The notes: generated by a model not told the origin, from the letters alone. 64,000 bases of DNA from Escherichia coli (GCF_003334315.1 NZ_QOWR01000023.1), one strand, 5' to 3'; positions 10,673 to 54,180 are shown, numbered from the stretch's first letter. A program made the numbers and translations.

Positions 10673-13850
<3,178 letters not shown>

Positions 13851-14140: not shown

Positions 14141-14965
14141 CTATTTCTTCTCTGTAATTTTTACACTGTTTTCCAACTGCTTGATGCTGACCTGCGGGGT
14201 CGGCAACTCCTCAGGCATGGTTCCGCCAAGTTCCTGAATGGTTTGCCTCACCTTGCGACCCACGTCAAAGTGTGTGGTGTTTGCTTGCTGTTTTGAATTC
14301 ACGCCATCCCGCTTGAGTTTTTCTTCTGTTTGGGTAGCTCGAAAGAGATTAGCCGCCAGTTCTGTTGAACCCATATGATCCAGGATCTTCTGACTCTTTT
14401 TCAGCCCCTTCAGTTGGTGGATGGCTTTCTGATCTAATCCACCATACAGCCCCCGGTAACCATGATTCTGAAATATGGCGAAATCGATAGCTGTCGCTCC
14501 CCCAGCTTGCTGCGCTGCCTCAACCAATTGTTTGTTATGTTCTTTCAATTCATTTCTCAGAAAAAGACGCTTTTCGTCTTCACGAAGTTGCCTGAAAGCT
14601 TCATCGTCAGCCAGCTCCTGCCGTCGGGTCTGGATAGCAAAATAAGTTTGCCCTGCCGCAATAACCGGTTTCGCAGGGTCGCCGTTTTGTACTACCAGGT
14701 AACAGGCATAGCGGGAGAGATGAACATCTTCAAGTTCTCGTTGAGCCCCTGAACCTAATACAACCATTTTGGTGGTTTCAACGAAATGGTCAGATGCAGC
14801 TTGATTGCTGGCTTCGCACGCTTGAGTCGCGCGGGCCAGTACCTTTTGAAAATTGCGCCAGTCCCGATAATCCAGTAACGGTGCCAATTCTCTAGCTGAC
14901 CAAAATTCTTGCCCTTCAGTGCCATAATGCCGTATTTCTTCAAAAGGTTGATGATGTTCGTTCAT
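14141..14965 (-). CDS. dinD: DNA-damage-inducible protein D
   Basis: ORF track 14141..14977; start trimmed to MNEHHQPFEEIRHYG (274 aa); a LexA box lies just upstream. Confidence 0.9.
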   Translation of the reverse strand: MNEHHQPFEEIRHYGTEGQEFWSARELAPLLDYRDWRNFQKVLARATQACEASNQAASDHFVETTKMVVLGSGAQRELEDVHLSRYACYLVVQNGDPAKPVIAAGQTYFAIQTRRQELADDEAFRQLREDEKRLFLRNELKEHNKQLVEAAQQAGGATAIDFAIFQNHGYRGLYGGLDQKAIHQLKGLKKSQKILDHMGSTELAANLFRATQTEEKLKRDGVNSKQQANTTHFDVGRKVRQTIQELGGTMPEELPTPQVSIKQLENSVKITEKK

Positions 14966-15010
14966 TGCCCACTCCATGTGATATCGATTGCAAAGAAAGT
15001 AAATCTGTAA

Positions 15011-15026
15011 CTGTATTTATATACAG
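15011..15026 (-). promoter_or_regulatory. LexA (SOS) operator upstream of dinD
   Basis: ctgtatttatatacag fits CTGT-N8-ACAG exactly, 46-61 bp upstream of the dinD start. Confidence 0.8.
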
Positions 15027-15185
15027 TTGTGAGTATCTCACGTTCTCAGTGTGCTGGGCAAAAAAACATCGCAAAATCTGGAGCAGGCACGCAAAACAGA
15101 ATTGAAGTTGCGGGGAAGAAAAATGCCGCTCTGTTTGAGTGGGCGGCATTTGTGAAGGCTGAAAAGTAAGAATTAGTGTTACGAG

Positions 15186-16049
15186 TTACTCAATATTCTG
15201 AATCTGCTCGCGCATCTGCTCAATCAACACTTTCAGCTCGATGGCGGAGTTTGTCACTTCGGCATTGATAGATTTCGACGCAAGAGTGTTCGACTCGCGG
15301 TTGAATTCCTGCATCATAAAGTCCAGACGACGACCAACGGCTTCTTTTTTCTTCAGAATGTTGTAGGTCTCTTTGACATGCGCTTCCAGGCGGTCCAGTT
15401 CTTCGGCAACGTCAATTCGTTGTGCCAGCAGAACCAACTCCTGCTCCAGACGGTTGTTTTCCAACTGAACCTGAGCATCTTCCAGCTTCGCGACCAGACG
15501 CTCACGCTGCCATTGCAGGATTTCCGGCATATGGGCGCGGACTTTGACCACTTCGGCGGTGACGCCTTCCAGACGCTGCTCGATCAATGCTTTCAGTGCC
15601 TGACCTTCGGTTTCGCGCGCGACAATAAAGTCGTCCAGCGTACCATCCAGCGCCGCGAGAATTTCAGCGGCAATGGCGTCGAGATCCTGCTCCTGGGCTG
15701 CCATCACGCCCGGCCAGCGCAGAATATCAACCGGGTTGATTTCCCCTTCGTCACTCTGCATTTTTACCCAGTTCGCGGCAGTTACCAGCTGTTTAGCCAG
15801 TTTTTCATTGAGGATCAGCTCACCTTGTGCGCTAACATCTGGCTCATAGCGCAGGGTACATTCCACTTTACCGCGCGTCAGGCGAGAACGAATACGCTCG
15901 CGAACGACAGGTTCAAGGCTACGGAACTGCTCCGGCAGACGAAAGTAAGTTTCCAGATAACGCTGGTTTACCGAGCGCATTTCCCAGGTTGCGCTCCCCC
16001 ATTCACCCTTGATTTCACGCCGGGCGTAGGCGGTCATACTGCGGATCAT
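15186..16049 (-). CDS. yicC: YicC-family stress-induced protein (UPF0701)
   Basis: 287-aa ORF MIRSMTAYARREIKGEWGSATWEMRSVN. Confidence 0.92.
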   Translation of the reverse strand: MIRSMTAYARREIKGEWGSATWEMRSVNQRYLETYFRLPEQFRSLEPVVRERIRSRLTRGKVECTLRYEPDVSAQGELILNEKLAKQLVTAANWVKMQSDEGEINPVDILRWPGVMAAQEQDLDAIAAEILAALDGTLDDFIVARETEGQALKALIEQRLEGVTAEVVKVRAHMPEILQWQRERLVAKLEDAQVQLENNRLEQELVLLAQRIDVAEELDRLEAHVKETYNILKKKEAVGRRLDFMMQEFNRESNTLASKSINAEVTNSAIELKVLIEQMREQIQNIE

Positions 16050-16175
16050 AGACGTTCCTGTTTATAAAAGGAGAGGTGGAAGGATTATAGCCATCGATGC
16101 CTTGTCAGGATAGGAATAACCGCCGGAAGTCCGTATAATGCGCAGCCACATTTGTTTCAAGCCGGAGATTTCAAT

Positions 16176-16892
16176 ATGCGTCCAGCAGGCCGTAGCAATA
16201 ATCAGGTGCGTCCCGTTACCCTGACTCGTAACTATACAAAACATGCAGAAGGCTCGGTGCTGGTCGAATTTGGCGATACCAAAGTGTTGTGTACCGCCTC
16301 TATTGAAGAAGGCGTGCCGCGCTTCCTGAAAGGTCAGGGCCAGGGCTGGATCACCGCAGAGTACGGCATGCTGCCACGTTCTACCCACACCCGTAACGCT
16401 CGTGAAGCGGCGAAAGGTAAGCAGAGTGGACGCACAATGGAAATCCAGCGTCTGATCGCCCGTGCTCTTCGCGCGGCAGTAGATTTGAAAGCGCTGGGTG
16501 AGTTCACCATTACGCTGGACTGCGACGTGCTTCAGGCTGATGGTGGCACGCGTACCGCGTCGATTACGGGTGCCTGCGTGGCGCTGGCAGATGCGCTACA
16601 GAAGCTGGTGGAAAACGGCAAGCTGAAAACCAACCCGATGAAAGGGATGGTAGCCGCAGTTTCTGTCGGTATTGTAAACGGTGAAGCAATTTGCGATCTG
16701 GAATACGTTGAAGACTCAGCCGCAGAGACCGACATGAACGTAGTGATGACCGAAGACGGGCGCATCATTGAAGTGCAGGGGACGGCAGAAGGCGAGCCGT
16801 TCACCCATGAAGAGCTACTCACCTTGTTGGCGCTGGCCCGAGGGGGAATCGAATCCATTGTAGCGACGCAGAAGGCGGCGCTGGCAAACTGA
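16176..16892 (+). CDS. rph: ribonuclease PH, full length (238 aa)
   Basis: ORF track 16152..16892; start trimmed to [14 protein letters not shown]; reads through to ...[16 protein letters not shown] without a frameshift. Confidence 0.93.
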
Positions 16893-16898
16893 TTTTTA

Positions 16899-16925
16899 AG
16901 GCGACTGATGAGTCGCCTTTTTTTT
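16899..16925 (+). terminator. rph-pyrE intercistronic attenuator/terminator hairpin
   Basis: Stem gcgact / agtcgcc with loop gatg followed by a run of 8 T, between the rph stop and the pyrE start. Confidence 0.8.
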
Positions 16926-16957
16926 GTCTGTAGAAAAGTAAGATGAGGAGCGAAGGC

Positions 16958-17599
16958 ATGAAACCATATCAGCGCCAGTTTATTGAATTTGCGCTTAGCA
17001 AGCAGGTGTTAAAGTTTGGCGAGTTTACGCTGAAATCCGGGCGCAAAAGCCCCTATTTCTTCAACGCCGGGCTGTTTAATACCGGGCGCGATCTGGCACT
17101 GTTAGGCCGTTTTTACGCTGAAGCGTTGGTGGATTCCGGCATTGAGTTCGATCTGCTGTTTGGCCCTGCTTACAAAGGGATCCCGATTGCCACCACAACC
17201 GCCGTGGCGTTGGCGGAGCATCATGACTTGGACCTGCCGTACTGCTTTAACCGCAAAGAGGCAAAAGACCACGGTGAAGGCGGCAATCTGGTTGGTAGCG
17301 CGTTACAAGGACGCGTAATGCTGGTAGATGATGTGATCACCGCCGGAACGGCGATTCGCGAATCGATGGAGATTATTCAGGCTAATGGCGCGACGCTTGC
17401 TGGCGTATTGATTTCGCTTGATCGTCAGGAACGGGGGCGCGGCGAGATTTCGGCGATTCAGGAAGTTGAGCGTGATTACAACTGCAAAGTGATCTCTATC
17501 ATCACCCTGAAAGATCTGATTGCCTATCTGGAAGAGAAGCCGGAAATGGCGGAACATCTGGCGGCGGTTAAGGCCTATCGCGAAGAGTTTGGCGTTTAA
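16958..17599 (+). CDS. pyrE: orotate phosphoribosyltransferase
   Basis: ORF track 16943..17599; start trimmed to [29 protein letters not shown] (213 aa). Confidence 0.95.
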
Positions 17600-17606
17600 A
17601 GAAACT

Positions 17607-17630
17607 CGCCGGATGAAAAGTCATCCGGCG
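17607..17630. terminator. perfect 10-bp inverted repeat between convergent pyrE and slmA (probable bidirectional terminator)
   Basis: cgccggatga-aaag-tcatccggcg. Confidence 0.5.
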
Positions 17631-17635
17631 TCATA

Positions 17636-18232
17636 TTACTGCAACTGCGCGGCAATTAGCGGCCAGCGGGCGTCAAAATCATCCGTCGGGCGGTATTTAA
17701 ATTCGCTGCGGACAAAACGTGACAGCATACCTTCACAGAAGGCCAGGATCTGGCTTGCCAGCAGGGTTTCATCGGTGGTGTAACCTTCACCCTCACGCAT
17801 TCTCTTTTCACGCAATACCTGACGCAGCTGCGCTTCAATACGCTCGAACAGCTGGTTGATACGCCCTTGCAGGCGATCCTGTTCAAACATCAGCGCATGA
17901 CCAGTGAGGATGCGGGTCAGGCCAGGATTACGCTCACCAAAACCGAGAAGCAGCAACACAATCAGACGCAGGCGCGCTGTGGTGTCTTTCTCATCTTTCA
18001 GAATCAGGTTGATGCGAGTAATCAGGCTATCTTCGATAAACTCAATCAGGCTATCGAACATGCGGGTCTTACTGGGGAAGTGGCGATACAGTGCCGCTTC
18101 GGAAACGCCGACAGAGGCGGCCAGTTTTGCCGTCGTGATACGTTGGCTTCCATCGCTGGATTCCAGCATCAGCGCCAGAGACTGAAGTATTTCCTCGCGA
18201 CGGTTCCTTTTCGCAGTTTGTTTTTCTGCCAT
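17636..18232 (-). CDS. slmA: nucleoid occlusion factor SlmA (TetR family)
   Basis: ORF track 17636..18274; start trimmed to [24 protein letters not shown] (198 aa). Confidence 0.93.
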
Positions 18233-18338
18233 GTTACAAAATACCCCTGAAAATAAGCACTTGCCAGGCGGCACCCACGCTATGACCGCAAACGAAATGT
18301 TTGCGGCTATGTTATGACGTTATTCGGATGCGTATGTG

Positions 18339-18797
18339 TTACTGACGACCAGAGTGACCAAAGCCGCCTTCACCGCGGTCGGTGGCGTCGAAATCTTCCA
18401 CCAGATTAAATTCAGCCTGTACTACCGGAACAAAAATCATCTGGGCGATGCGTTCGCCAGGTTGAATGGTGAAGCTGTCCTGACCACGGTTCCAAACGGA
18501 AATCATCAACTGGCCCTGATAGTCAGAATCGATCAATCCTACCAGGTTACCAAGCACGATACCGTGCTTATGTCCCAATCCGGAGCGCGGCAGCATCATT
18601 GCCGCCAGTGAAGGATCGGCAATATGAATCGCCAGCCCGGTCGGAACCAGCGTAGTGTCACCCGGAGCCAGTTCTACGGCGTCGTCGAGACAGGCACGCA
18701 GGTCAAGTCCGGCAGAGCCAGAGGTGGCATAAGTCGGGAGCGGAAATTCCTTCCCAACGCGCGGGTCCAGAATCTTAACGTCGATTTTTTTCATCAT
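18339..18797 (-). CDS. dut: dUTP diphosphatase
   Basis: [38 protein letters not shown]; the true start may be the second Met (18794). Confidence 0.95.
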
Positions 18798-19995
18798 AAC
18801 GGGTCACGATCTCGTCGAGTAATAATTGGCCAAGGAGCTCTTTGCGCTCAAGCGGTAAGACTTTATCTCCGTCCTGCCAGAAAAGGTGTAATGCGTTGTT
18901 GTCGCTGTTAAATCCTTGAGTTGGCTGGGAAACATCGTTCGCGCAGATCAGATCAAGGTTTTTACGGATACGTTTTTGCCGGGCGTATTCTTCCACATTA
19001 TTTGTTTCGGCGGCAAATCCAACGACGTAGGGTCGATGGTCTTTTAGTGCGGCAACGCCTGCGACGATATCGGGGTTTTTAACCATTTTTATTGTTAATT
19101 CATCACCCTGCGTGGCCTGCTTTTTGATTTTTTCTGGGGCCACGGTAGCTGCGCGATAATCCGCCACGGCGGCGCAACCGATAAAAATATTTTGCTGCTG
19201 TACAGAAGCATTCACGGCGGCTTCCATTTCCAGCGCGGTCATCACATCAACACGTTTAACAAACGGTGGCGTCGGTAGTGAAACCGGACCTGATACCAGC
19301 GTGACGTTCGCGCCACGACGGGCAGCGGCGGCGGCGATAGCAAAACCCATCTTGCCGGAGCTGTGATTAGAGATATAACGCACCGGATCGAGCGGTTCAC
19401 GCGTCGGGCCGGTGGTAATCATAATGTTCAGATGTTTCAGGTCGTTGACGGGCGAAAAATGCGCTACCGCCATATCCACAATGGTTAATGGATCGAGCAT
19501 TCGCCCTGGGCCGATATCACCACAAGCCTGACTGCCACTGTCTGGCCCCCAGATCAGCAAACCACGGGAAGCAAGCACCTCTAAATTATGCTGCGTGGCA
19601 GCGGCACGGTACATCTGCTGGTTCATGGCGGGGAGCACGGCTACAGGCGCAGGTGTAGCCAGACAAATCGTCGATACCAGGTCATTCGCCATTCCGGCAG
19701 CAACACGGGCAATCAAATCTGCCGTGGCAGGGGCGAGAATCACTAAATCAGCCCATTTACCCAGCTCAATATGGCCCATAGCGGCTTCGGCTGCCGGGTC
19801 CAGCAGACTGTCGGAAACGGGATAACCAGAAACCGCCTGCAAGCTAAGTGGGGTGATAAAGGCTTTTGCCGCTTCGGTCATGGCTACGCGGACGTCGGCC
19901 CCGCGATCGCGCAAACGACGCACCAGTTCAGGGGTTTTATAGGCAGCAATACCGCCGCTAACGCCGAGAACGATTTTTTTACCGGCCAGGCTCAT
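18775..19995 (-). CDS. coaBC: bifunctional phosphopantothenoylcysteine decarboxylase / synthetase
   Basis: ORF track 18775..20067; start trimmed to [20 protein letters not shown] (406 aa); cat seen at 19993-19995; 3' end overlaps the dut start. Confidence 0.93.
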
Positions 19996-20160
19996 GATGA
20001 TTTTTCCTGTTGGGTGACACCAGAAGTTGGCGATTTTATCACAATACTTTTGTTGTCGTGCCTTCACCTGAGATTCACTTTGCGAGGCTCTTTCCAGGAT
20101 TGAAAACTGGCCGTCGATTTAACGGAACGACTATGACAGGATGCGAGCACCACAAAGGAG

Positions 20161-20835
20161 GTGAAGGTGAAAAACAATGCACAGCTGTTGATGCCGCGCG
20201 AAAAAATGCTGAAGTTTGGTATTAGCGCCTTAACGGATGTCGAGCTGCTGGCGCTATTTCTGCGTACCGGAACGCGCGGTAAAGATGTATTAACCCTGGC
20301 AAAAGAGATGCTGGAGAATTTCGGCTCTCTTTATGGCTTGTTAACCTCTGAATATGAACAATTTAGTGGTGTTCATGGAATTGGCGTAGCGAAATTTGCC
20401 CAGTTAAAGGGGATTGCTGAACTGGCGCGACGTTACTACAACGTGCGGATGCGTGAAGAAAGCCCTTTACTCAGCCCGGAGATGACGCGGGAATTTTTAC
20501 AAAGCCAGCTCACGGGTGAGGAGCGGGAGATCTTTATGGTGATCTTTCTCGACTCCCAACACCGGGTTATAACGCATAGCCGTCTTTTTTCCGGCACGCT
20601 AAACCATGTTGAAGTCCATCCTCGGGAAATTATCCGCGAAGCGATAAAAATAAACGCCTCGGCGCTGATCCTTGCACATAATCATCCTTCGGGTTGTGCT
20701 GAACCCAGTAAAGCGGATAAACTCATTACTGAACGGATAATAAAGAGTTGTCAGTTCATGGATTTACGCGTGCTCGACCATATCGTGATTGGGCGTGGAG
20801 AGTATGTTTCTTTTGCCGAACGCGGCTGGATTTAA
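20161..20835 (+). CDS. radC: RadC-like JAB-domain protein (UPF0758)
   Basis: 224-aa ORF with HxHxxxxxxxxxxD-like motif ([16 protein letters not shown]). Confidence 0.9.
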
Positions 20836-21030
20836 CCCGCTATGCGCGATCCTTCGGGATCTTTGTCTGTTCGGGACTTGAGCACATCGCTGAGTCAGCG
20901 TATACTACGCCACCTTTGAGAATCTCGGGTTTGGCATTTGGGCCTGGCAATCGAGAGTTCACATAGAACTGCGATGACCGGGCTGTAAAGCCTGACGAGG
21001 CGCCAATACCCCATACGAAGCTCGAGCTAA

Positions 21031-21288
<258 letters not shown>

Positions 21289-21305
21289 GTACTTAGAGGA
21301 AATAA

Positions 21306-21476
<171 letters not shown>

Positions 21477-21500
21477 TTCTCGCTTTGATGTAACGAAAAA

Positions 21501-21522
21501 CCTCGCTCCGGCGGGGTTTTTT
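21501..21522 (+). terminator. rho-independent terminator after rpmBG
   Basis: cctcgc-tccg-gcgggg hairpin (one G-U pair) followed by 6 T. Confidence 0.6.
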
Positions 21523-21573
21523 GTTATCTGCTTACCCCCATATTGATTGCATCTGTTCATTCCTGGAGATGCT

Positions 21574-22383
21574 ATGCCTGAATTACCCGAAGTTGAAACC
21601 AGCCGCCGCGGCATAGAACCGCATCTCGTTGGTGCAACCATTCTTCATGCAGTGGTGCGCAACGGACGCTTGCGCTGGCCGGTTTCAGAAGAGATCTACC
21701 GTTTAAGCGACCAACCAGTGCTTAGCGTGCAGCGGCGGGCTAAATATCTGCTGCTGGAGCTGCCTGAGGGCTGGATTATCATTCATTTAGGGATGTCTGG
21801 CAGCCTGCGCATCCTTCCAGAAGAACTTCCCCCTGAAAAGCATGACCATGTGGATTTGGTGATGAGCAACGGCAAAGTGCTGCGCTACACCGATCCGCGC
21901 CGCTTTGGTGCCTGGCTGTGGACCAAAGAGCTGGAAGGGCATAATGTGCTGACCCATCTTGGACCGGAGCCGCTTAGCGACGATTTCAATGGTGAGTATC
22001 TGCATCAGAAGTGCGCGAAGAAAAAAACGGCGATTAAACCGTGGCTGATGGATAACAAGCTGGTGGTAGGGGTAGGGAATATCTATGCCAGCGAATCACT
22101 GTTTGCGGCGGGGATCCATCCGGATCGGCTGGCGTCATCACTGTCGCTGGCAGAGTGTGAATTGTTAGCTCGGGTGATTAAAGCGGTGTTGCTGCGTTCG
22201 ATTGAGCAGGGTGGTACAACGCTGAAAGATTTTCTGCAAAGTGATGGTAAACCGGGCTATTTCGCTCAGGAATTGCAGGTTTACGGGCGAAAAGGTGAGC
22301 CGTGTCGGGTGTGCGGTACGCCGATTGTGGCGACTAAACATGCGCAGCGGGCAACGTTTTATTGTCGGCAGTGCCAGAAGTAA
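21574..22383 (+). CDS. mutM: formamidopyrimidine-DNA glycosylase
   Basis: ORF track 21547..22383; start trimmed to [18 protein letters not shown] (269 aa); C-terminal zinc finger CRVCGTPIV...CRQCQK. Confidence 0.95.
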
Positions 22384-22421
22384 TTCATGCGCGCCGGATG
22401 GCATACCATCCGGCATAAACG

Positions 22422-24186
<1,765 letters not shown>

Positions 24187-24537
24187 AGTAAATAGCTGAC
24201 TTATGGATGTGCTGGGGATTCTATGTATTTAGCTGTGGCTTTACCATTACTTTTCCCGTTTTTGACTTAAATAGCAATTTACCCGCCAATTCTTGCTGAA
24301 CATCTATACTTTTTTTGTATTTTTATGCGATTCATTGATTTCTGCTGTACGTGCAGGAAGGAATCGCAGAGCAACAGTGAAAGAATATGGTTGCTAATGA
24401 TTTTATTTGATTGATTTCTTTATTGAAAATCAACAATGTGCTTAAAAATCATTCGGGTCGGATTGCCGCGAAAGAAGTGATACACTAGCGCGTCAATATC
24501 AGTGCGGTATCAGTATTCAGGTAGCTGTTGAGCCTGG

Positions 24538-24549
24538 GGCGGTAGCGTG
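24538..24549 (+). promoter_or_regulatory. ops / JUMPStart element (RfaH recruitment site) in the waaQ leader
   Basis: GGCGGTAGCGTG at 24538-24549, about 50-95 bp upstream of the candidate waaQ starts. Confidence 0.8.
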
Positions 24550-24598
24550 CTTTTTCTGCTTCACCTTAATCGGATAATCTCAACAAAAAGAGTTACTT

Positions 24599-25657
24599 GT
24601 GGATAAGCCATTTCGAAGAATTTTGCTCATTAAGATGCGTTTTCATGGGGATATGTTATTAACTACTCCCGTCATTAGTTCGCTGAAAAAAAATTACCCT
24701 GACGCAAAAATCGATGTGCTGCTTTATCAGGACACCATCCCGATCCTGTCTGAAAATCCAGAGATTAACGCGCTCTACGGCATAAAAAATAAAAAAGCAA
24801 AAGCCTCAGAAAAAATTGCCAACTTTTTTCATCTCATCAAGGTATTACGTGCCAATAAGTATGACCTTATCGTCAATCTCACCGATCAATGGATGGTTGC
24901 TATACTGGTTCGCTTATTAAATGCCCGTGTGAAAATTTCCCAGGATTATCATCATCGGCAGTCTGCTTTTTGGCGTAAAAGTTTCACCCATTTGGTGCCG
25001 TTGCAGGGTGGAAATGTGGTGGAAAGTAACTTATCCGTGCTGACCCCATTGGGAGTTGATTCGTTGGTGAAGCAGACAACCATGAGTTACCCGCCTGCAA
25101 GCTGGAAACGTATGCGTCGCGAACTTGATCACGCTGGTGTTGGACAAAATTATGTGGTTATCCAACCTACGGCGCGGCAAATCTTCAAATGCTGGGACAA
25201 CGCCAAGTTTTCCGCTGTGATTGATGCCTTACATGCTCGTGGTTATGAAGTTGTTCTGACGTCCGGCCCAGATAAAGACGATCTGGCCTGCGTCAATGAA
25301 ATTGCGCAGGGATGCCAGACGCCACCAGTAACGGCGCTGGCTGGAAAGGTGACCTTCCCGGAACTTGGTGCGTTAATCGATCATGCGCAGCTGTTTATTG
25401 GCGTTGATTCCGCACCGGCGCATATTGCCGCTGCAGTTAATACGCCGCTGATATCGCTGTTTGGTGCGACAGACCATATTTTCTGGCGTCCCTGGTCAAA
25501 TAACATGATTCAATTCTGGGCGGGAGATTACCGGGAAATGCCAACGCGCGATCAGCGTGACCGAAATGAGATGTATCTTTCGGTTATTCCGGCGGCAGAT
25601 GTCATTGCTGCTGTCGATAAATTACTGCCCTCCTCCACGACAGGTACGTCGTTATGA
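24599..25657 (+). CDS. waaQ: LPS heptosyltransferase III
   Basis: GT9-family ORF; start ambiguous between GTG 24599, TTG 24623 and ATG 24635 (MRFHGDMLLTTPVISSLKK...). Confidence 0.9.
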   Translation: MDKPFRRILLIKMRFHGDMLLTTPVISSLKKNYPDAKIDVLLYQDTIPILSENPEINALYGIKNKKAKASEKIANFFHLIKVLRANKYDLIVNLTDQWMVAILVRLLNARVKISQDYHHRQSAFWRKSFTHLVPLQGGNVVESNLSVLTPLGVDSLVKQTTMSYPPASWKRMRRELDHAGVGQNYVVIQPTARQIFKCWDNAKFSAVIDALHARGYEVVLTSGPDKDDLACVNEIAQGCQTPPVTALAGKVTFPELGALIDHAQLFIGVDSAPAHIAAAVNTPLISLFGATDHIFWRPWSNNMIQFWAGDYREMPTRDQRDRNEMYLSVIPAADVIAAVDKLLPSSTTGTSL

Positions 25658-26778
25658 TCGTTGCTTTTTGTTTATATAAATATTTTCCCTTTGGCGGTTT
25701 GCAGCGTGATTTTATGCGTATTGCTCAGACAGTCGCCGCCCGAGGTCATCATGTTCGGGTTTATACCCAGTCGTGGGAAGGCGAATGCCCTGATGTATTT
25801 GAACTGATCAAAGTGCCGGTTAAATCGCATACCAATCACGGGCGCAATGCGGAGTATTTTGCCTGGGTGCAAAAACATTTACGCGAACATCCCGTCGATA
25901 AAGTCGTTGGATTCAACAAAATGCCGGGGCTGGACGTTTATTATGCCGCTGATGTTTGTTATGCCGAGAAAGTAGCGCAGGAAAAAGGCTTTTTCTATCG
26001 CCTGACGTCACGTTATCGCCATTATGCCGCCTTTGAGCGGGCAACCTTCGAACAGGGCAAGCCGACACAGCTGCTGATGCTGACAGATAAGCAAATCGCC
26101 GATTTCCAGAAACATTATCAGACTGAAGCGGAGCGTTTTCATATTCTGCCACCGGGGATTTATCCTGATCGTAAATATAGCCAGCAGCCAGCCAATAGCC
26201 GTGAAATCTTCCGTAAGAAGAATGGAATAACCGAACAACAATATTTATTGTTGCAGGTCGGTTCAGACTTCACGCGTAAAGGTGTCGATCGTTCCATTGA
26301 AGCACTTGCTTCGTTACCGGATTCGCTGCGCCACAACACATTGCTATATGTTGTTGGGCAGGATAAACCGCGAAAATTTGAGGCACTGGCAGAAAAACGC
26401 GGCGTGCGCAGTAATGTTCACTTCTTCTCGGGGCGCAACGATGTCTCGGAATTAATGGCGGCGGCGGATTTATTACTGCATCCTGCCTACCAGGAAGCGG
26501 CGGGAATTGTGCTGCTGGAAGCGATTACTGCAGGATTACCGGTACTAACAACTGCCGTTTGTGGCTATGCGCATTATATTGTCGACGCTAATTGCGGCGA
26601 GGCTATTGCTGAGCCATTCCGCCAGGAAACATTGAATGAGATTTTACGCAAAGCGTTAACGCAATCTTCATTGCGCCAGGCTTGGGCGGAAAATGCGCGA
26701 CATTATGCTGATACACAAGATTTACACAGTCTGCCAGAGAAAGCGGCGGATATCATAACGGGTGGTCTGGATGGTTGA
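25654..26778 (+). CDS. waaG: LPS core glucosyltransferase I (GT4)
   Basis: 374-aa [28 protein letters not shown]; start overlaps the waaQ stop. Confidence 0.95.
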
Positions 26779-27568
26779 ACTTAAAGAGCCGTTTGCCACG
26801 TTATGGCGCGGCAAAGATCCTTTTGAGGAAGTTAAAACCTTGCAGGGTGAGGTATTTCGTGAACTGGAAACTCGCCGTACTCTGCGCTTTGAAATGGCGG
26901 GCAAAAGCTATTTTCTCAAATGGCATCGCGGCACGACCCTGAAAGAGGTAATCAAAAATTTACTCTCATTGCGGATGCCAGTATTAGGCGCTGACCGCGA
27001 ATGGAATGCGATTCATCGACTGCGGGATGTCGGCGTTGATACTATGTATGGGGTGGCATTCGGCGAAAAAGGCATGAATCCGCTGACCAGAACCTCGTTT
27101 ATTATTACCGAAGATCTGACACCAACCATAAGTCTGGAAGATTACTGTGCTGACTGGGCGACCAACCCACCAGATGTTCGCGTAAAGCGTATGCTTATTA
27201 AGCGTGTCGCGACGATGGTGCGCGATATGCATGCTGCGGGCATTAATCACCGTGACTGTTATATCTGTCATTTCCTGCTGCACTTGCCTTTTTCCGGTAA
27301 GGAAGAGGAGTTAAAAATTTCGGTAATTGACCTGCACCGGGCGCAGCTTCGCACGCGCGTTCCACGTCGTTGGCGCGATAAAGATCTTATTGGACTTTAT
27401 TTTTCTTCGATGAATATTGGCCTGACTCAGCGGGATATCTGGCGGTTTATGAAGGTGTATTTTGCCGCTCCGCTTAAAGACATTCTCAAGCAGGAACAAG
27501 GACTGCTGTTGCAAGCAGAAGCAAAAGCCACAAAAATCAGGGAAAGAACGATTCGAAAATCGTTGTAA
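26771..27568 (+). CDS. waaP: LPS core heptose(I) kinase
   Basis: ORF track 26762..27568; start trimmed to [21 protein letters not shown] (265 aa). Confidence 0.93.
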
Positions 27569-27610
27569 CCCGTAACTTATTTTTGCCAAAATTTTGGATA
27601 CAGAATAAAT

Positions 27611-38406: not shown

Positions 38407-39432
38407 ATGAAAGCGTTATCCAAACTGAAAGCGGAAGAGGGCATCTGGATGACCGACGTTCCTGTACCGGAACTCGGGCATAACGATCTGCTGATTAAAA
38501 TCCGTAAAACAGCCATCTGCGGGACTGACGTTCACATCTATAACTGGGATGAGTGGTCGCAAAAAACCATCCCGGTGCCGATGGTCGTGGGCCATGAATA
38601 TGTCGGTGAAGTGGTAGGTATTGGTCAGGAAGTGAAAGGCTTCAAGATCGGCGATCGCGTTTCTGGCGAAGGCCATATCACCTGTGGTCATTGCCGCAAC
38701 TGTCGTGGTGGTCGTACCCATTTGTGCCGCAACACGATAGGCGTTGGTGTTAATCGCCCGGGCTGCTTTGCCGAATATCTGGTGATCCCGGCATTCAACG
38801 CCTTCAAAATCCCCGACAATATTTCCGATGACTTAGCCGCAATTTTTGATCCCTTCGGTAACGCCGTGCATACCGCGCTGTCGTTTGATCTGGTGGGCGA
38901 AGATGTGCTGGTTTCTGGTGCAGGCCCGATTGGTATTATGGCAGCGGCGGTGGCGAAACACGTTGGTGCACGCAATGTGGTGATCACTGATGTTAACGAA
39001 TACCGCCTTGAGCTGGCGCGCAAAATGGGTATCACCCGTGCGGTTAACGTCGCGAAAGAAAACCTTAATGATGTGATGGCTGAACTGGGCATGACCGAAG
39101 GCTTTGATGTCGGTCTGGAAATGTCCGGCGCGCCGCCAGCGTTTCGTACCATGCTCGATACCATGAACCACGGCGGTCGTATTGCGATGCTGGGTATTCC
39201 ACCGTCTGACATGTCTATCGACTGGACCAAAGTGATCTTTAAAGGCTTGTTCATTAAAGGCATTTACGGTCGTGAGATGTTTGAAACCTGGTACAAGATG
39301 GCGGCGCTGATTCAGTCTGGCCTCGATCTCTCGCCGATCATTACCCATCGTTTCTCTATCGATGATTTCCAGAAGGGCTTTGACGCCATGCGTTCGGGCC
39401 AGTCCGGGAAAGTTATTCTGAGCTGGGATTAA
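38407..39432 (+). CDS. tdh: L-threonine 3-dehydrogenase
   Basis: 341-aa zinc-ADH family [31 protein letters not shown]. Confidence 0.96.
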
Positions 39433-39441
39433 CACGAAAAA

Positions 39442-39463
39442 GGGCTGGTATTCCAGCCCTTTT
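39442..39463 (+). terminator. rho-independent terminator of kbl-tdh
   Basis: gggctgg-ta-ttccagccc perfect stem followed by TTTT. Confidence 0.8.
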
Positions 39464-39670
39464 GCCTGAGGATAATCCGTTAAATATGTAAAATCCTGTC
39501 AGTGTAATAAAGATATCGTAATTGCGCTGATCTCTTATATAGCTGCTCTCATTATCTCTCTACCCTGAAGTGACTCTCTCACCTGTAAAAATAATATCTC
39601 ACAGGCTTAATAGTTTCTTAATACAAAGCCTGTAAAACGTCAGGATAACTTCAGAGGTCGTCGGTAATTT

Positions 39671-40705
39671 ATGATGAACAGCACCAATAAACTTAGTGTT
39701 ATTATTCCGTTATATAATGCGGGCGATGATTTCCGCACTTGTATGGAATCTTTAATTACGCAAACCTGGACTGCTCTGGAAATCATTATTATTAACGATG
39801 GTTCAACGGATAATTCTGTTGAAATAGCAAAGCATTACGCAGAAAACTATCCGCACGTTCGTTTGTTGCATCAGGCGAATGCTGGCGCATCGGTGGCGCG
39901 TAATCGTGGGATCGAGGTGGCAACGGGCAAATATGTCGCTTTTGTCGATGCTGACGATGAAGTCTATCCCACCATGTACGAAACGCTGATGACCATGGCG
40001 TTAGAGGACGACCTCGATGTAGCGCAGTGCAACGCTGACTGGTGTTTTCGTGAAACGGGAGAAACCTGGCAATCCATCCCCAGCGATCGCCTTCGCTCAA
40101 CCGGCGTATTAACCGGCCCGGACTGGCTGCGGATGGGGCTTTCTTCGCGCCGTTGGACTCACGTTGTCTGGATGGGGGTTTATCGCCGCGATGTTATTGT
40201 TAAAAATAACATTAAATTTATTGCCGGATTACATCATCAGGATATTGTCTGGACAACAGAATTCATGTTTAACGCTTTGCGTGCGCGATATACCGAGCAA
40301 TCGTTATATAAATATTATCTGCATAATACGTCAGTGAGTCGGTTGCATAGACAAGGGAATAAAAACCTTAATTATCAACGTCACTATATTAAGATTACCC
40401 GCCTGCTGGAGAAATTAAATCGAAATTATGCCGACAAAATTACGATTTATCCGGAATTTCATCAGCAAATAACTTACGAAGCATTGCGTGTTTGCCATGC
40501 GGTGCGCAAAGAGCCGGATATTCTTACCCGCCAACGGATGATTGCCGAGATATTTACTTCCGGTATGTATAAGCGCCTGATTACCAATGTGCGCAGCGTG
40601 AAGGTGGGTTACCAGGCGTTACTGTGGTCTTTCCGCTTATGGCAATGGCGCGACAAAACGCGGTCGCACCATCGCATTACGCGTAGCGCCTTTAATTTGC
40701 ACTAG
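39671..40705 (+). CDS. waaH: GT2-family glycosyltransferase (WaaH/YibD)
   Basis: 344-aa ORF with GT2 N-terminus LSVIIPLYNAGDDF and DADD motif. Confidence 0.9.
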   Translation: MMNSTNKLSVIIPLYNAGDDFRTCMESLITQTWTALEIIIINDGSTDNSVEIAKHYAENYPHVRLLHQANAGASVARNRGIEVATGKYVAFVDADDEVYPTMYETLMTMALEDDLDVAQCNADWCFRETGETWQSIPSDRLRSTGVLTGPDWLRMGLSSRRWTHVVWMGVYRRDVIVKNNIKFIAGLHHQDIVWTTEFMFNALRARYTEQSLYKYYLHNTSVSRLHRQGNKNLNYQRHYIKITRLLEKLNRNYADKITIYPEFHQQITYEALRVCHAVRKEPDILTRQRMIAEIFTSGMYKRLITNVRSVKVGYQALLWSFRLWQWRDKTRSHHRITRSAFNLH

Positions 40706-41651
40706 CGTTAAGTTTTGCCGCTTCGGGCTGCTTGCCCCAGCCTTGCCACTGATGCTGGAAGTAAACGATCAGCGTGCTCTGGCTGATGCTTTCGCTTAAT
40801 ACTTCAAAGAAGCGATTAGCATAAACAGGTTCTATCGGTTTCTTCGGTTTGCACAGCTTCACGCCACGGAACGGATTACGCGGTGCATCAGGCACAGCGT
40901 TTTTCGGCGGTGTAGAAGTATCAACCTGCGGTTCATTCAGCAAGCTGCTGGCTTTCACCAGCGTAATGTCTGGCGGCAGGTTATAAACCATCTGTTGCAA
41001 CACGCGTACCGTTGCAGGGTGAGGATGCCCAATGGCAATGGTCGAACCGTTGCGACGCGCCAGGTCAATTGCGCGATTAAATTGCACACGGATGTCCGCT
41101 TCATTTTGCGAATCGTCGAGGAATACCTTCCGTTTGATCACCTTCACGCCAGTGCCTTGCGCGGCGCGCATCGCCTGGGTATTACCGATGGTTACGCTGT
41201 CGAGGAAGTAAAGATTGTAACGCTCCAGCGCCTGCATCACTTTCTGCATACCAAACAGGTTAGAGGTCATCTTGCTGCCCATGTGGTTGTTGATCCCCAC
41301 GGCATAGGGCACGTTATTGACCGCACTACGAATAATGCGCTCAATTTCGTCGCTGCTCATCTCCGGGCGTAGCGTATTTTTCTCCAGCGGCTGTTTACTC
41401 AACGGTGCCATCGGGAGATGAATCAACACTTCGTGCCCGCTGTTATGCGCTTTGGTCGCCATCTCTCTGGCGTGCGGTGAATCGGGTAATACAGCGACGG
41501 AGATAGCGGAAGGCATCGCCAGCACCTGGTTTTCGTTGTGCGGGCGATACCCAAAATCATCAATGACGATGGCAAGTTTGCCAGCAAGTACGGGGGAGGA
41601 GAGCGCCAACAGAGCGGCAAATGCAAGAACGTTACGACGAAATGGAAACAA
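40692..41651 (-). CDS. yibQ: divergent polysaccharide deacetylase family protein
   Basis: 319-aa ORF with signal peptide; 3' end overlaps the waaH 3' end by 14 bp (convergent). Confidence 0.88.
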   Translation of the reverse strand: MFPFRRNVLAFAALLALSSPVLAGKLAIVIDDFGYRPHNENQVLAMPSAISVAVLPDSPHAREMATKAHNSGHEVLIHLPMAPLSKQPLEKNTLRPEMSSDEIERIIRSAVNNVPYAVGINNHMGSKMTSNLFGMQKVMQALERYNLYFLDSVTIGNTQAMRAAQGTGVKVIKRKVFLDDSQNEADIRVQFNRAIDLARRNGSTIAIGHPHPATVRVLQQMVYNLPPDITLVKASSLLNEPQVDTSTPPKNAVPDAPRNPFRGVKLCKPKKPIEPVYANRFFEVLSESISQSTLIVYFQHQWQGWGKQPEAAKLNASAN

Positions 41652-41654
41652 AAC

Positions 41655-42914
41655 TTATCTTCCCAACCACGGCTGTGGATTGACCGCCTGACCCTGGCGG
41701 CGAATTTCGAAATAGAGTGAAGGCCGACCCTGACCGCCACTGCTGCCCACCAGTGCAATCGGCTGGCCCGCGCGAACCTGCGAACCAACGCTCACCAGTG
41801 CGCTCTGATTATAGCCGTAAAGACTCATGTCGCCTTTACCATGCTCAACCACCACCACCAGACCGTAGCCTTGCAGCCAGTCAGCCAGAATCACCCGACC
41901 GTCGGCAATCGCTTTAACTTCAGTACCTTCAGAAGCACCGATAACCATACCTTTCCAGCGTAATTCACCCTGTAGCTGTTCGCCATAGCGATGCAGCGTC
42001 GGCCCGCGAACCGGCCAGAATGCCTGACCACGCGGCGCGCCCAGACCACCGGTACGGGACATCAGCGATTTTTCGCTTTCGGTCGGTTTGTAGGTGGTGC
42101 CTTTGCGCGTCGCTTCTTTCTGGCGGTCGCGAACCGCCTGGGCCTCACGTGCTTCTCGTTCTGCACGCGCTTTCGCCGCGGCTTCCGCACGGGCAATGCT
42201 GTTACGCAGACGGGATTCGTTGGCGCGCAGCTCGCTCAACTGTTGCTGACCTTGCTGGATGGAAGACTCCAGCCCTGCCAGCGTCTTTTTACGCTCGTTC
42301 AGCGCCTGAGTCAGTTTCGCCTGTTGGGCGCGCTGCTCATATAACAGCGTTTGTTGCTCGCTCTGTTTCTCTTCCAGTTCAGCACGCTGCATGGCGACTT
42401 CTTCACGCGTTTGCTTCAACTGGGCAATGGTTTCTTGTCGCGCCTGGTTGAGATAGCCGAAATAAGCCTGTAAACGCTGTCCACGCTGGCTTTCTTCACC
42501 GCTGAGAATCAGCTGAATACCGGTATGCTCGCCCTGACGGAATGCGGCATCCAGTTGTGCGGCGAGGCTGCGCTCCTGGGCGGCTTTTTGCTGCTCCAGT
42601 TTGGCAATCGACGCGTTCATCTCATCAATCTGTTTATTGAGTTGATTGAGCGTGTTTTGCGTTTCGCGCAGCTTACGGGTGGCTTCAGAGATCGCTTCTT
42701 CCTGCTTTTTCAATTGTGCGAGCAGGCTTGCGCGTTGTTGTTGCTTTTGGCGTACCGCGCGCTCTTTTGCGGCGATGTCAGCCTGAATAGATTTGAGTTG
42801 GTCACGCTCATCCGCGTGGGCGGAAAAGGCGCACAACAATACGCCAGCGCTAAGAACGCTGGCGTAGATGATGGGCCTGATTGCAAACCTGCGCGGTTTC
42901 ACGGCCCGTGTCAT
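41655..42914 (-). CDS. envC: murein hydrolase activator EnvC (coiled coil plus LytM domain)
   Basis: ORF track 41655..42938; start trimmed to MTRAVKPRRFAIRP (419 aa); long Q/A/E-rich coiled coil then a C-terminal LytM-like domain. Confidence 0.92.
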   Translation of the reverse strand: MTRAVKPRRFAIRPIIYASVLSAGVLLCAFSAHADERDQLKSIQADIAAKERAVRQKQQQRASLLAQLKKQEEAISEATRKLRETQNTLNQLNKQIDEMNASIAKLEQQKAAQERSLAAQLDAAFRQGEHTGIQLILSGEESQRGQRLQAYFGYLNQARQETIAQLKQTREEVAMQRAELEEKQSEQQTLLYEQRAQQAKLTQALNERKKTLAGLESSIQQGQQQLSELRANESRLRNSIARAEAAAKARAEREAREAQAVRDRQKEATRKGTTYKPTESEKSLMSRTGGLGAPRGQAFWPVRGPTLHRYGEQLQGELRWKGMVIGASEGTEVKAIADGRVILADWLQGYGLVVVVEHGKGDMSLYGYNQSALVSVGSQVRAGQPIALVGSSGGQGRPSLYFEIRRQGQAVNPQPWLGR

Positions 42915-53371: not shown

Positions 53372-53581
53372 ATGGGCAAATTAGGTGAAAACGTTCCGCT
53401 TCTTATCGATAAAGCCGTAGATTTCATGGCATCAAGCCAGGCGTTCCGGGAGTATCTGAAAAAACTTCCTCCCCGTAACGCGATTCCGTCCGGAATACCC
53501 GATGAAAGCGTGCCGTTATATCTACAACGTCTGGAGTATTATCGTCGGCTTTATCGGCCGAAGCAGGTAGAGGGGCAGTAA
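53372..53581 (+). CDS. yibT: small protein of unknown function (69 aa)
   Basis: 69-aa [34 protein letters not shown], isolated in an intergenic gap; symbol assigned from position only. Confidence 0.5.
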
Positions 53582-53592
53582 GCAGACGTTGC

Positions 53593-54180
53593 TTACTTTT
53601 GAAAGGCTTTTTTTAAGCTGATTTTGGAAATCAGCTCAGTCAGTGAAAGGACCATTGTTGATCGCACAGCCTGTTGATAGCGCTGAATTTGCATTGCATA
53701 CAAACTGGAGTCTGCTGGTTCAAACTGTGGCGGCGGTGGTAACGCCGCCACGCAGTGCAGTTCACCAAAGGGTCCAAGGATTTCGTCGTCGGTAAAGGCG
53801 TACTCGTTGCCGTCGTGATTTAGCTCTTCACGCAATGCCATCAGCAGTTCCGCATCTTCGTATTCCTGGCGGTTAATGACGCCCAACCCGTAAATGAGTT
53901 TTAAACGCACAGAAAGATCGCCCAGCGGACCATCGCCGTCGAGTAACGGTTCTACAGCATACTTCACCGCGTAATCGTCTTTGCGGAATACCTGAAGCAC
54001 CAGAAGATTTACCGCCTCGGTCAGGAGCTCGACGGCGGTGATCAGAAAGCTTCGCACGGTTTTGCCAGCATTCAGACGCTCAAGCACACGGTTTTCAAAG
54101 GCCTGGGTTTGTTCCATTGTTGCCTGCATATCTGACAATCTGTTATTCGGGCGCAGGGTGTCCTGCGCCTGGTCCACCAT
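53593..54180 (-). CDS. mtlR: mannitol operon repressor
   Basis: 195-aa [34 protein letters not shown]; directly downstream of mtlD. Confidence 0.93.
   Translation of the reverse strand: MVDQAQDTLRPNNRLSDMQATMEQTQAFENRVLERLNAGKTVRSFLITAVELLTEAVNLLVLQVFRKDDYAVKYAVEPLLDGDGPLGDLSVRLKLIYGLGVINRQEYEDAELLMALREELNHDGNEYAFTDDEILGPFGELHCVAALPPPPQFEPADSSLYAMQIQRYQQAVRSTMVLSLTELISKISLKKAFQK

Follow-up and report, generated by a model that had tools for sequence, protein, structure and literature searches.

The waaH and yibQ genes overlap tail to tail

We found that two genes on opposite strands converge and share their last 14 bp in the analysed window, a stretch of 64,000 nucleotides of an Escherichia coli chromosome (GCF_003334315.1, NZ_QOWR01000023.1). 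On the plus strand, waaH (also yibD; positions 39671..40705) encodes the UDP-glucuronate:LPS(HepIII) glycosyltransferase of 344 amino acids and ends in a TAG at 40703-40705, with a back-up in-frame TAA at 40709-40711. On the minus strand, yibQ (sddA; 40692..41651) encodes a periplasmic deacetylase of denuded peptidoglycan strands of 319 amino acids; its stop, TAA, lies opposite positions 40692-40694, and a further stop in the same frame follows 4 codons on, at 40677-40679. Both coding sequences are given by the six-frame ORF list and by RefSeq. Upstream of yibQ, in the same operon, lies envC (41655..42914, minus strand), the end of which assumes the RefSeq coding sequence of 1260 nt, the mechanical ORF reaching beyond it to 42938. 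The locus aligns to that of MG1655 without gaps at 99.1% identity, and a window coordinate equals 3829752 minus the MG1655 coordinate.

The earlier note had described a convergent 14-bp 3' overlap between these genes at 40692-40705, and we find it to be exact, both in the ORF list and in the sequence itself. The 3' end of waaH reads GCC TTT AAT TTG CAC TAG and that of yibQ reads GCT AGT GCA AAT TAA, with the 14 bp common to both strands (40692..40705; sequence, codon tables and cross-genus alignment) encoding (F)NLH plus the stop in WaaH and (A)SAN plus the stop in YibQ. Codon positions within the overlap pair 1-1, 2-3 and 3-2, the length of 14 being of the form 3n+2, an offset that has been reported as the commonest among convergent overlaps longer than 4 nt. 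Re-annotation of either stop codon, which the earlier note had named as the way in which the overlap could be lost, is impossible in this strain, since the reading frames fix both stops.

Both genes, one on each strand, are genuinely protein-coding, and their products are securely identified. Against the NCBIfam equivalog NF007482, WaaH scores 635 bits (cut-off 423), the profile ending at residue 334, and it carries a GT2 domain at residues 9-137 (Pfam), while residues 28-238 of YibQ match PF04748 (Pfam) and no NCBIfam family matched this protein. A 2025 preprint, which describes the enzymology of YibQ, has renamed it SddA and has it co-transcribed with envC in the same operon; its part beyond residue 238 is described as disordered and dispensable for activity, SddA levels are reported to be affected by Prc, and an AlphaFold3 model places the last SddA residues in the Prc active site (10.1101/2025.02.18.638797). 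The overlapped codons are the extreme C-terminal tails of the two proteins, outside their catalytic domains.

When examining existing annotation, we find that the RefSeq record of MG1655 has the same 14-bp overlap (b3614, 3788101..3789060; b3615, 3789047..3790081), that RefSeq annotates it likewise in WCHEC035053S1G0, CFT073, PK8275 and ESY002, and that the junction sequence is found in 5425 of 5426 complete E. coli genomes. In E. coli, 663 overlapping adjacent gene pairs are reported, 75 of which are convergent (PMC4161906), and in the MG1655 interval that corresponds to the window, two of nine convergent pairs overlap (yibQ/waaH and yicG/ligB). Moving the MG1655 annotation onto the window by exact sequence match places the yicG/ligB overlap, which is 4 bp long, at 13233..13236, and the convergent pair mtlR/yibT, whose members lie 11 nt apart, at 53579..53595. 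The waaH/yibQ overlap is real, ordinary and already in the reference annotation; a literature search on yibQ together with waaH returned no paper.

Elsewhere in the window, the LPS core (waa) cluster at ~14933..32893 is not of the K-12 type. The window contains nothing that matches MG1655 3797752..3805257 (waaL to waaS), and the stretch from waaP to dinD, aligned to window positions 14933..27464, is only 93% identical to MG1655. A JUMPstart element (RF01707) lies at 24511..24549 on the plus strand, far from the junction, and is the sole Rfam match in the window.

The junction across Enterobacteriaceae

Next, we investigated the junction in related genomes. Scanning one genome per species yielded 80 Enterobacteriaceae loci, in each of which both stops were measured. 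An overlap of exactly 14 bp was observed at 11 loci from seven genera, namely in E. coli, E. albertii, Salmonella enterica subsp. diarizonae, Citrobacter sp. Cu233, C. amalonaticus, C. sedlakii, C. youngae CCUG 30791, Leclercia sp. UBA7405, Enterobacter sp. ENT03, Silvania confinis and Cedecea colo. The two coding sequences share 4 bp at three Kluyvera loci (K. cryocrescens, K. intermedia and K. georgiana), in Pseudescherichia vulneris and in one MAG, their stops abut (0 bp) in the C. freundii group and at two Kluyvera loci, and a gap of 6-113 nt separates them in Kosakonia cowanii, Superficieibacter sp. and Pseudocitrobacter. In Klebsiella, Raoultella, most Enterobacter, Lelliottia and Buttiauxella, waaH is absent. 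The overlap is thus a conserved arrangement, which is more than chance and neither a one-off nor an error.

Codon choice in waaH and the position of the yibQ stop

We then compared the two C-termini. YibQ is conserved up to ...QWQGW (residue ~305), after which follows a tail of 1 to ~17 residues that varies by genus, whereas the C-terminus of WaaH is conserved as ...WRDKT.S..R..R.A(L/F)NL(x)*. The YibQ tails end variously in ASAN, ANAD, ATPG, ISEG, AKTD and others, while WaaH retains A(L/F)NL. The yibQ stop corresponds to positions 2 and 3 of WaaH codon -4 (F, L or I) together with position 1 of the Asn codon that follows. Read antisense, a WaaH xTT-A or xTC-A gives TAA or TGA, respectively, whereas xTA-A and xTG-A give no stop.

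The choice of synonymous codons follows this rule. WaaH codon -4 ends in a pyrimidine (T or C) in 12 of the 12 sequences of the 14-bp class, a number of related sequences for which statistics are only indicative. Where codon -4 is Leu, it is CTT or CTC in seven out of seven cases, the CTC of Salmonella giving TGA; at codon -2, a pyrimidine ends only 1 of the 11 Leu codons. In relatives with an earlier yibQ stop, the third base of codon -4 is C, G, T, A, T, T and G. The last residue of YibQ (N, D or G) tracks the synonymous choice in the Asn and Leu codons of WaaH. In Superficieibacter electus BP-1 (L025:3709-3860), WaaH codon -4 is GTG, which yields no antisense stop, and the yibQ ORF stays open for 152 nt within waaH; this long overlap may be genuine, or it may reflect a frameshift in yibQ or a faulty assembly.

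Taken together, these patterns suggest how the length of the overlap may be set. At loci of the E. coli type, the variable YibQ tail would read on until it meets a TAA or TGA, and these would be supplied antisense by the conserved (F/L/I)-N codons of WaaH, xTY-AAY. The final four residues of YibQ would be dictated by synonymous codons of waaH, with the A-(L/F)-N-L of WaaH staying fixed, and selection for WaaH codons -4 that end in a pyrimidine would keep the yibQ stop in place. The constancy of the 14-bp length across genera would follow from this selected pyrimidine. From the sequence comparison, WaaH appears to be the constrained partner and the last YibQ residues appear to be passengers, with the position of the yibQ stop being maintained.

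The conservation of ...QWQGW and the published hint on Prc leave room for a separate role of the tail, and the YibQ tail may have a function of its own. We did not retain the Prc-tail idea as supported by sequence: the terminal YibQ residues vary (N, D or G) with the waaH codons, and this variability argues against a strict C-terminal recognition motif.

Terminators at and around the junction

The earlier note had also held that neither gene can have a conventional terminator without invading its partner, and the scans and folds agree with it, as no intrinsic terminator was detected at the junction. A pattern scan returned four terminator-like sites compared with 2.7 +/- 2.3 in shuffled sequence, with no such site after the yibQ stop; the closest one to the waaH stop, 63 nt downstream, is a weak hairpin of 6 pairs. 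Folds of the junction were no better than those of shuffled sequence on either strand (z = -0.72 and -1.37), the consensus fold of 12 sequences reached -7.4 kcal/mol and, its covariation term being +0.13, has no covariation support, and an Rfam scan of the whole window found nothing at the junction.

The only consistent helix of the consensus fold is the stem GCGAC/GTCGC, which belongs to a 5-bp hairpin, GCGAC-(8 nt)-GTCGC, at 40650..40667. It falls within waaH codons that specify W-R-D-K-T-x-S, lacks a T-tract and owes most of its invariance to coding. We considered this hairpin as a terminator and rejected it, given its stem of only 5 bp and its lack of both a T-tract and covariation support.

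A different picture emerges next to tdh. Directly after this gene, at 39436..39463, sequence and fold reveal an A-tract, the hairpin GGGCTGG-TATT-CCAGCCC and a T-tract, and this element looks like a bidirectional intrinsic terminator. In relatives without waaH, in which yibQ faces tdh, a spacer of 39-118 nt carries a terminator made up of an A-tract, a hairpin and a T-tract; in two Citrobacter loci (L008 and L010) the yibQ-tdh spacer has the same stem as the hairpin at 39436-39463, and three other loci (L045, L078 and L080) have analogous hairpins. The tdh-type terminator of E. coli lies beyond waaH, and yibQ is thereby cut off from it. Judging by gene order only, waaH may have entered the locus by insertion between yibQ and the bidirectional terminator next to tdh.

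Natural variants of the locus

Several natural alleles alter the junction. In E. coli O157:H7, waaH carries a 1-bp insertion 50 nt before its stop, which turns GACAAAA into GAAAAAAA (equivalent to window positions ~40652-40658). In strain F8952 of this serotype (L083:1262-1424), the last 17 waaH codons are frameshifted, the ORF has 338 amino acids and ends in TAG, and a 5-nt gap now precedes the yibQ coding sequence, and consequently the overlap is gone. This allele, matched at >=99% identity by 310 complete genomes, is a frameshifted pseudogene according to PGAP, although waaH of O157:H7 is taken to be functional in a preprint. In E. coli O111:H2 12A (L084), waaH is partly missing; the 3' end that overlaps yibQ is kept together with an intact yibQ.

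Deletions in Citrobacter have also spared the overlapped end of waaH. In Citrobacter sp. Awk 4 and R56 (L008:3880-4110 and L010), all that is left of waaH are the final codons (P)LNLR*, those shared with yibQ, and the deletion edge lies ~3 nt from the yibQ stop. These remnants show that waaH was lost in both genomes rather than never present. The deletion edges would fit selection against damage to the yibQ end.

Transcript ends and Rho-dependent termination

Next, we compared the junction with published transcript data. Direct RNA measurements with and without bicyclomycin, made in MG1655 in LB only and scored in 800-nt windows that give no precise 3' end, contain a Rho termination region on the yibQ strand that peaks at MG1655 3789384 (window ~40368) and is labelled 'antisense waaH' (Adams 2021, PMC7815308). 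The peak lies about 324 nt past the yibQ stop, inside waaH, with upstream/downstream coverage of 106/28 without and 187/274 with bicyclomycin (Rho score 5.55, p = 1.8e-15; PMC7815308 supplementary file 2). From these data and the gapless mapping to MG1655, the envC-yibQ untranslated run-on, antisense to the 3' part of waaH, can be placed at 40300..40691 on the minus strand. Termination on the yibQ side is, like the overlap itself, already mapped in published data.

A second Rho region, on the waaH strand, peaks at 3790042 (window ~39710), 39 nt into waaH, with coverage of 95/20 without and 154/187 with bicyclomycin (PMC7815308); it corresponds to 39690..39730 on the plus strand, in the 5' part of the gene (PMC7815308 supplementary file 2). 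The same supplementary file lists no discrete 3' end for either yibQ or waaH, and the supplements of the SMRT-Cappable-seq study (PMC6131387) hold no entry for yibQ, waaH or envC.

Past the stop at 40692, the RNA of the yibQ strand is untranslated and no strong structure is predicted in it. Its C/G ratio is 1.24-1.53 in windows of 80 nt that begin 21-81 nt beyond the end of yibQ, a mild bias of C over G that is compatible with Rho loading and is not diagnostic of it.

The course of transcription that these data suggest is as follows. With waaH and yibQ abutting, no intergenic terminator is available, and the gpmM-envC-yibQ transcript overruns its stop, giving rise to untranslated RNA antisense to waaH. 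This antisense run-on is ended by Rho a few hundred nucleotides downstream, as the published bicyclomycin data show for LB. The waaH transcript is scarce when phosphate is plentiful and rises upon phosphate starvation, and presumably it also ends by Rho, inside antisense yibQ.

Upstream of waaH, we observe an inverted repeat, ACAGGCTT-(17 nt)-AAGCCTGT, at 39601..39633, ~40-70 nt upstream of the waaH ATG, and the whole tdh-waaH spacer (39425..39675) folds far better than shuffled sequence (z = -4.0). The repeat might serve waaH, which phosphate starvation induces, as a leader or regulatory structure. The published Rho region at ~39710 lies just downstream of it.

Origin of the overlap and alternative readings

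Overall, the explanation that best accounts for the locus, to which we assign a probability of roughly 0.85, combines an overlap born of a shifted stop codon with a run-on ended by Rho, with no dedicated device at the junction. The shift of the stop would have produced an ordinary convergent coding overlap.

The earlier note had also raised the possibility that transcription of one gene interferes with that of the other, and its interpretation as a whole stands in part. The yibQ-strand transcript does invade waaH (Rho peak at ~40368), but envC RNA shows no significant change when waaH is higher: under low phosphate, comparing wild type with a phoB deletion, waaH reaches ~12,700 versus ~3,000 normalised units (4.3-fold, log2 2.1) and envC ~2,260 versus ~3,020 (log2 -0.4, q = 0.19) (PMC10294691 Table S1). 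In LB, polymerases would rarely meet, since Rho halts sense transcription 39 nt into waaH. Meaningful interference is not supported, and it is the absence of a terminator between the genes that matters, not the 14 shared bases themselves.

These same measurements bear on regulation of the excludon kind, in which starvation-induced waaH would lower yibQ/envC and vice versa, coupling the LPS core to septal wall processing. Such regulation would draw on a yibQ-strand transcript that extends at least ~300 nt antisense into waaH, on the lack of a terminator separating the genes, on an arrangement conserved in several genera, and on a low-phosphate waaH RNA level ~5 times that of envC with a small inverse trend in envC (log2 -0.4). 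However, the change in envC falls short of significance (q = 0.19), in many relatives waaH is lacking or lies 6-113 nt away from yibQ, waaH alleles are disrupted in O157:H7 and O111:H2 strains, and Rho termination antisense to a neighbour is common in the PMC7815308 dataset and therefore nothing special here. We regard this kind of regulation as unlikely.

Head-on collisions could in principle set both 3' ends, with the hairpin at 40650-40667 pausing polymerases, as in bidirectional termination of the type described by Ju 2019 and Wang 2022. Terminators of this class have been described between convergent E. coli genes and are unlike intrinsic terminators, and the short hairpin 25-42 nt past the yibQ stop is largely conserved. 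Its stem is just 5 bp, though, and its invariance stems mainly from the coding of W-R-D-K...S, without covariation support; moreover, terminators of this class are described as acting without Rho, yet bicyclomycin affects read-through on the yibQ strand. In LB there is hardly any waaH transcription, which would make collisions rare, and supplementary file 2 of PMC7815308 lists no discrete 3' end. Collision-driven termination is in our judgement very unlikely at this junction.

The chance is slimmer still that the overlap is exploited, tying the SddA ending ...NASAN, which the AlphaFold3 model places in the Prc active site, to the conserved C-terminus of WaaH, which would stop both from drifting, and with starvation-induced waaH transcription, antisense to yibQ-envC, tuning septal peptidoglycan processing in addition. 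If true, this would be an unrecognised link between glucuronylation of the LPS core and daughter-cell separation.

Least credible of all is an annotation or sequencing artefact, in which one stop would be wrong and the true proteins would not overlap: a poorly conserved YibQ tail, reported as disordered, and the 1-bp insertion of O157:H7, which moves the waaH stop and removes the overlap, could be read in its favour, but both reading frames are unambiguous in the window, the junction sequence is near-universal in complete E. coli genomes (5425/5426), all sampled rows among the ~5,100 genomes without the O157-type allele align without the extra base, the same 14 bp recur in seven genera, and a codon bias by which the yibQ stop is kept speaks for translation up to that stop.

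Setting these alternatives aside, the stop-shift overlap with its Rho-ended run-on makes the locus a clean example of several things: of a short overlap born as a variable tail reads into a conserved neighbour, of an overlap length held by the silent-site constraint of a neighbour that preserves an antisense stop, and of transcription ending without a spacer, with Rho acting inside the partner gene. For engineering, it follows that a clean deletion or a C-terminal tag of waaH or yibQ/sddA changes the last four codons or the stop of the other gene. What is added here is the antisense-stop constraint on silent sites of waaH, the cross-genus junction series, the deletion remnants and the displaced tdh terminator; beyond such careful bookkeeping, the importance of the locus is small.

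Comparison with known systems

Finally, we compared the locus with known systems. It resembles excludons in that the 3' transcripts of differently regulated genes overlap, and it differs from them in that the pair is not known to be expressed reciprocally, nor to have a long antisense transcript or a promoter dedicated to one. Bidirectional intrinsic terminators are used by the relatives in which yibQ faces tdh, and in the window one such element stands next to tdh; in contrast, none lies at the waaH/yibQ junction, and waaH puts ~1.2 kb between yibQ and the tdh hairpin.

The likeness is closer to Rho termination antisense to a convergent neighbour (PMC7815308), with the bicyclomycin-sensitive read-through of yibQ inside waaH being the same phenomenon, and many other entries of that table are also 'antisense' to a neighbouring gene. 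The difference is that here the run-on begins inside the coding sequence of the partner, without any spacer.

From convergent overlapping pairs (Huvet & Stumpf 2014, PMC4161906; the PairWise Neighbours database, PMC2716372), nothing of substance differs. As here, such pairs consist of two real coding sequences with a short shared 3' stretch, one ORF extends to the next available stop, and the overlap is kept among related species. The peculiarity of waaH/yibQ within this class is that two adjacent codons for a conserved WaaH dipeptide supply, when read antisense, the yibQ stop, which pins the overlap at 14 bp.
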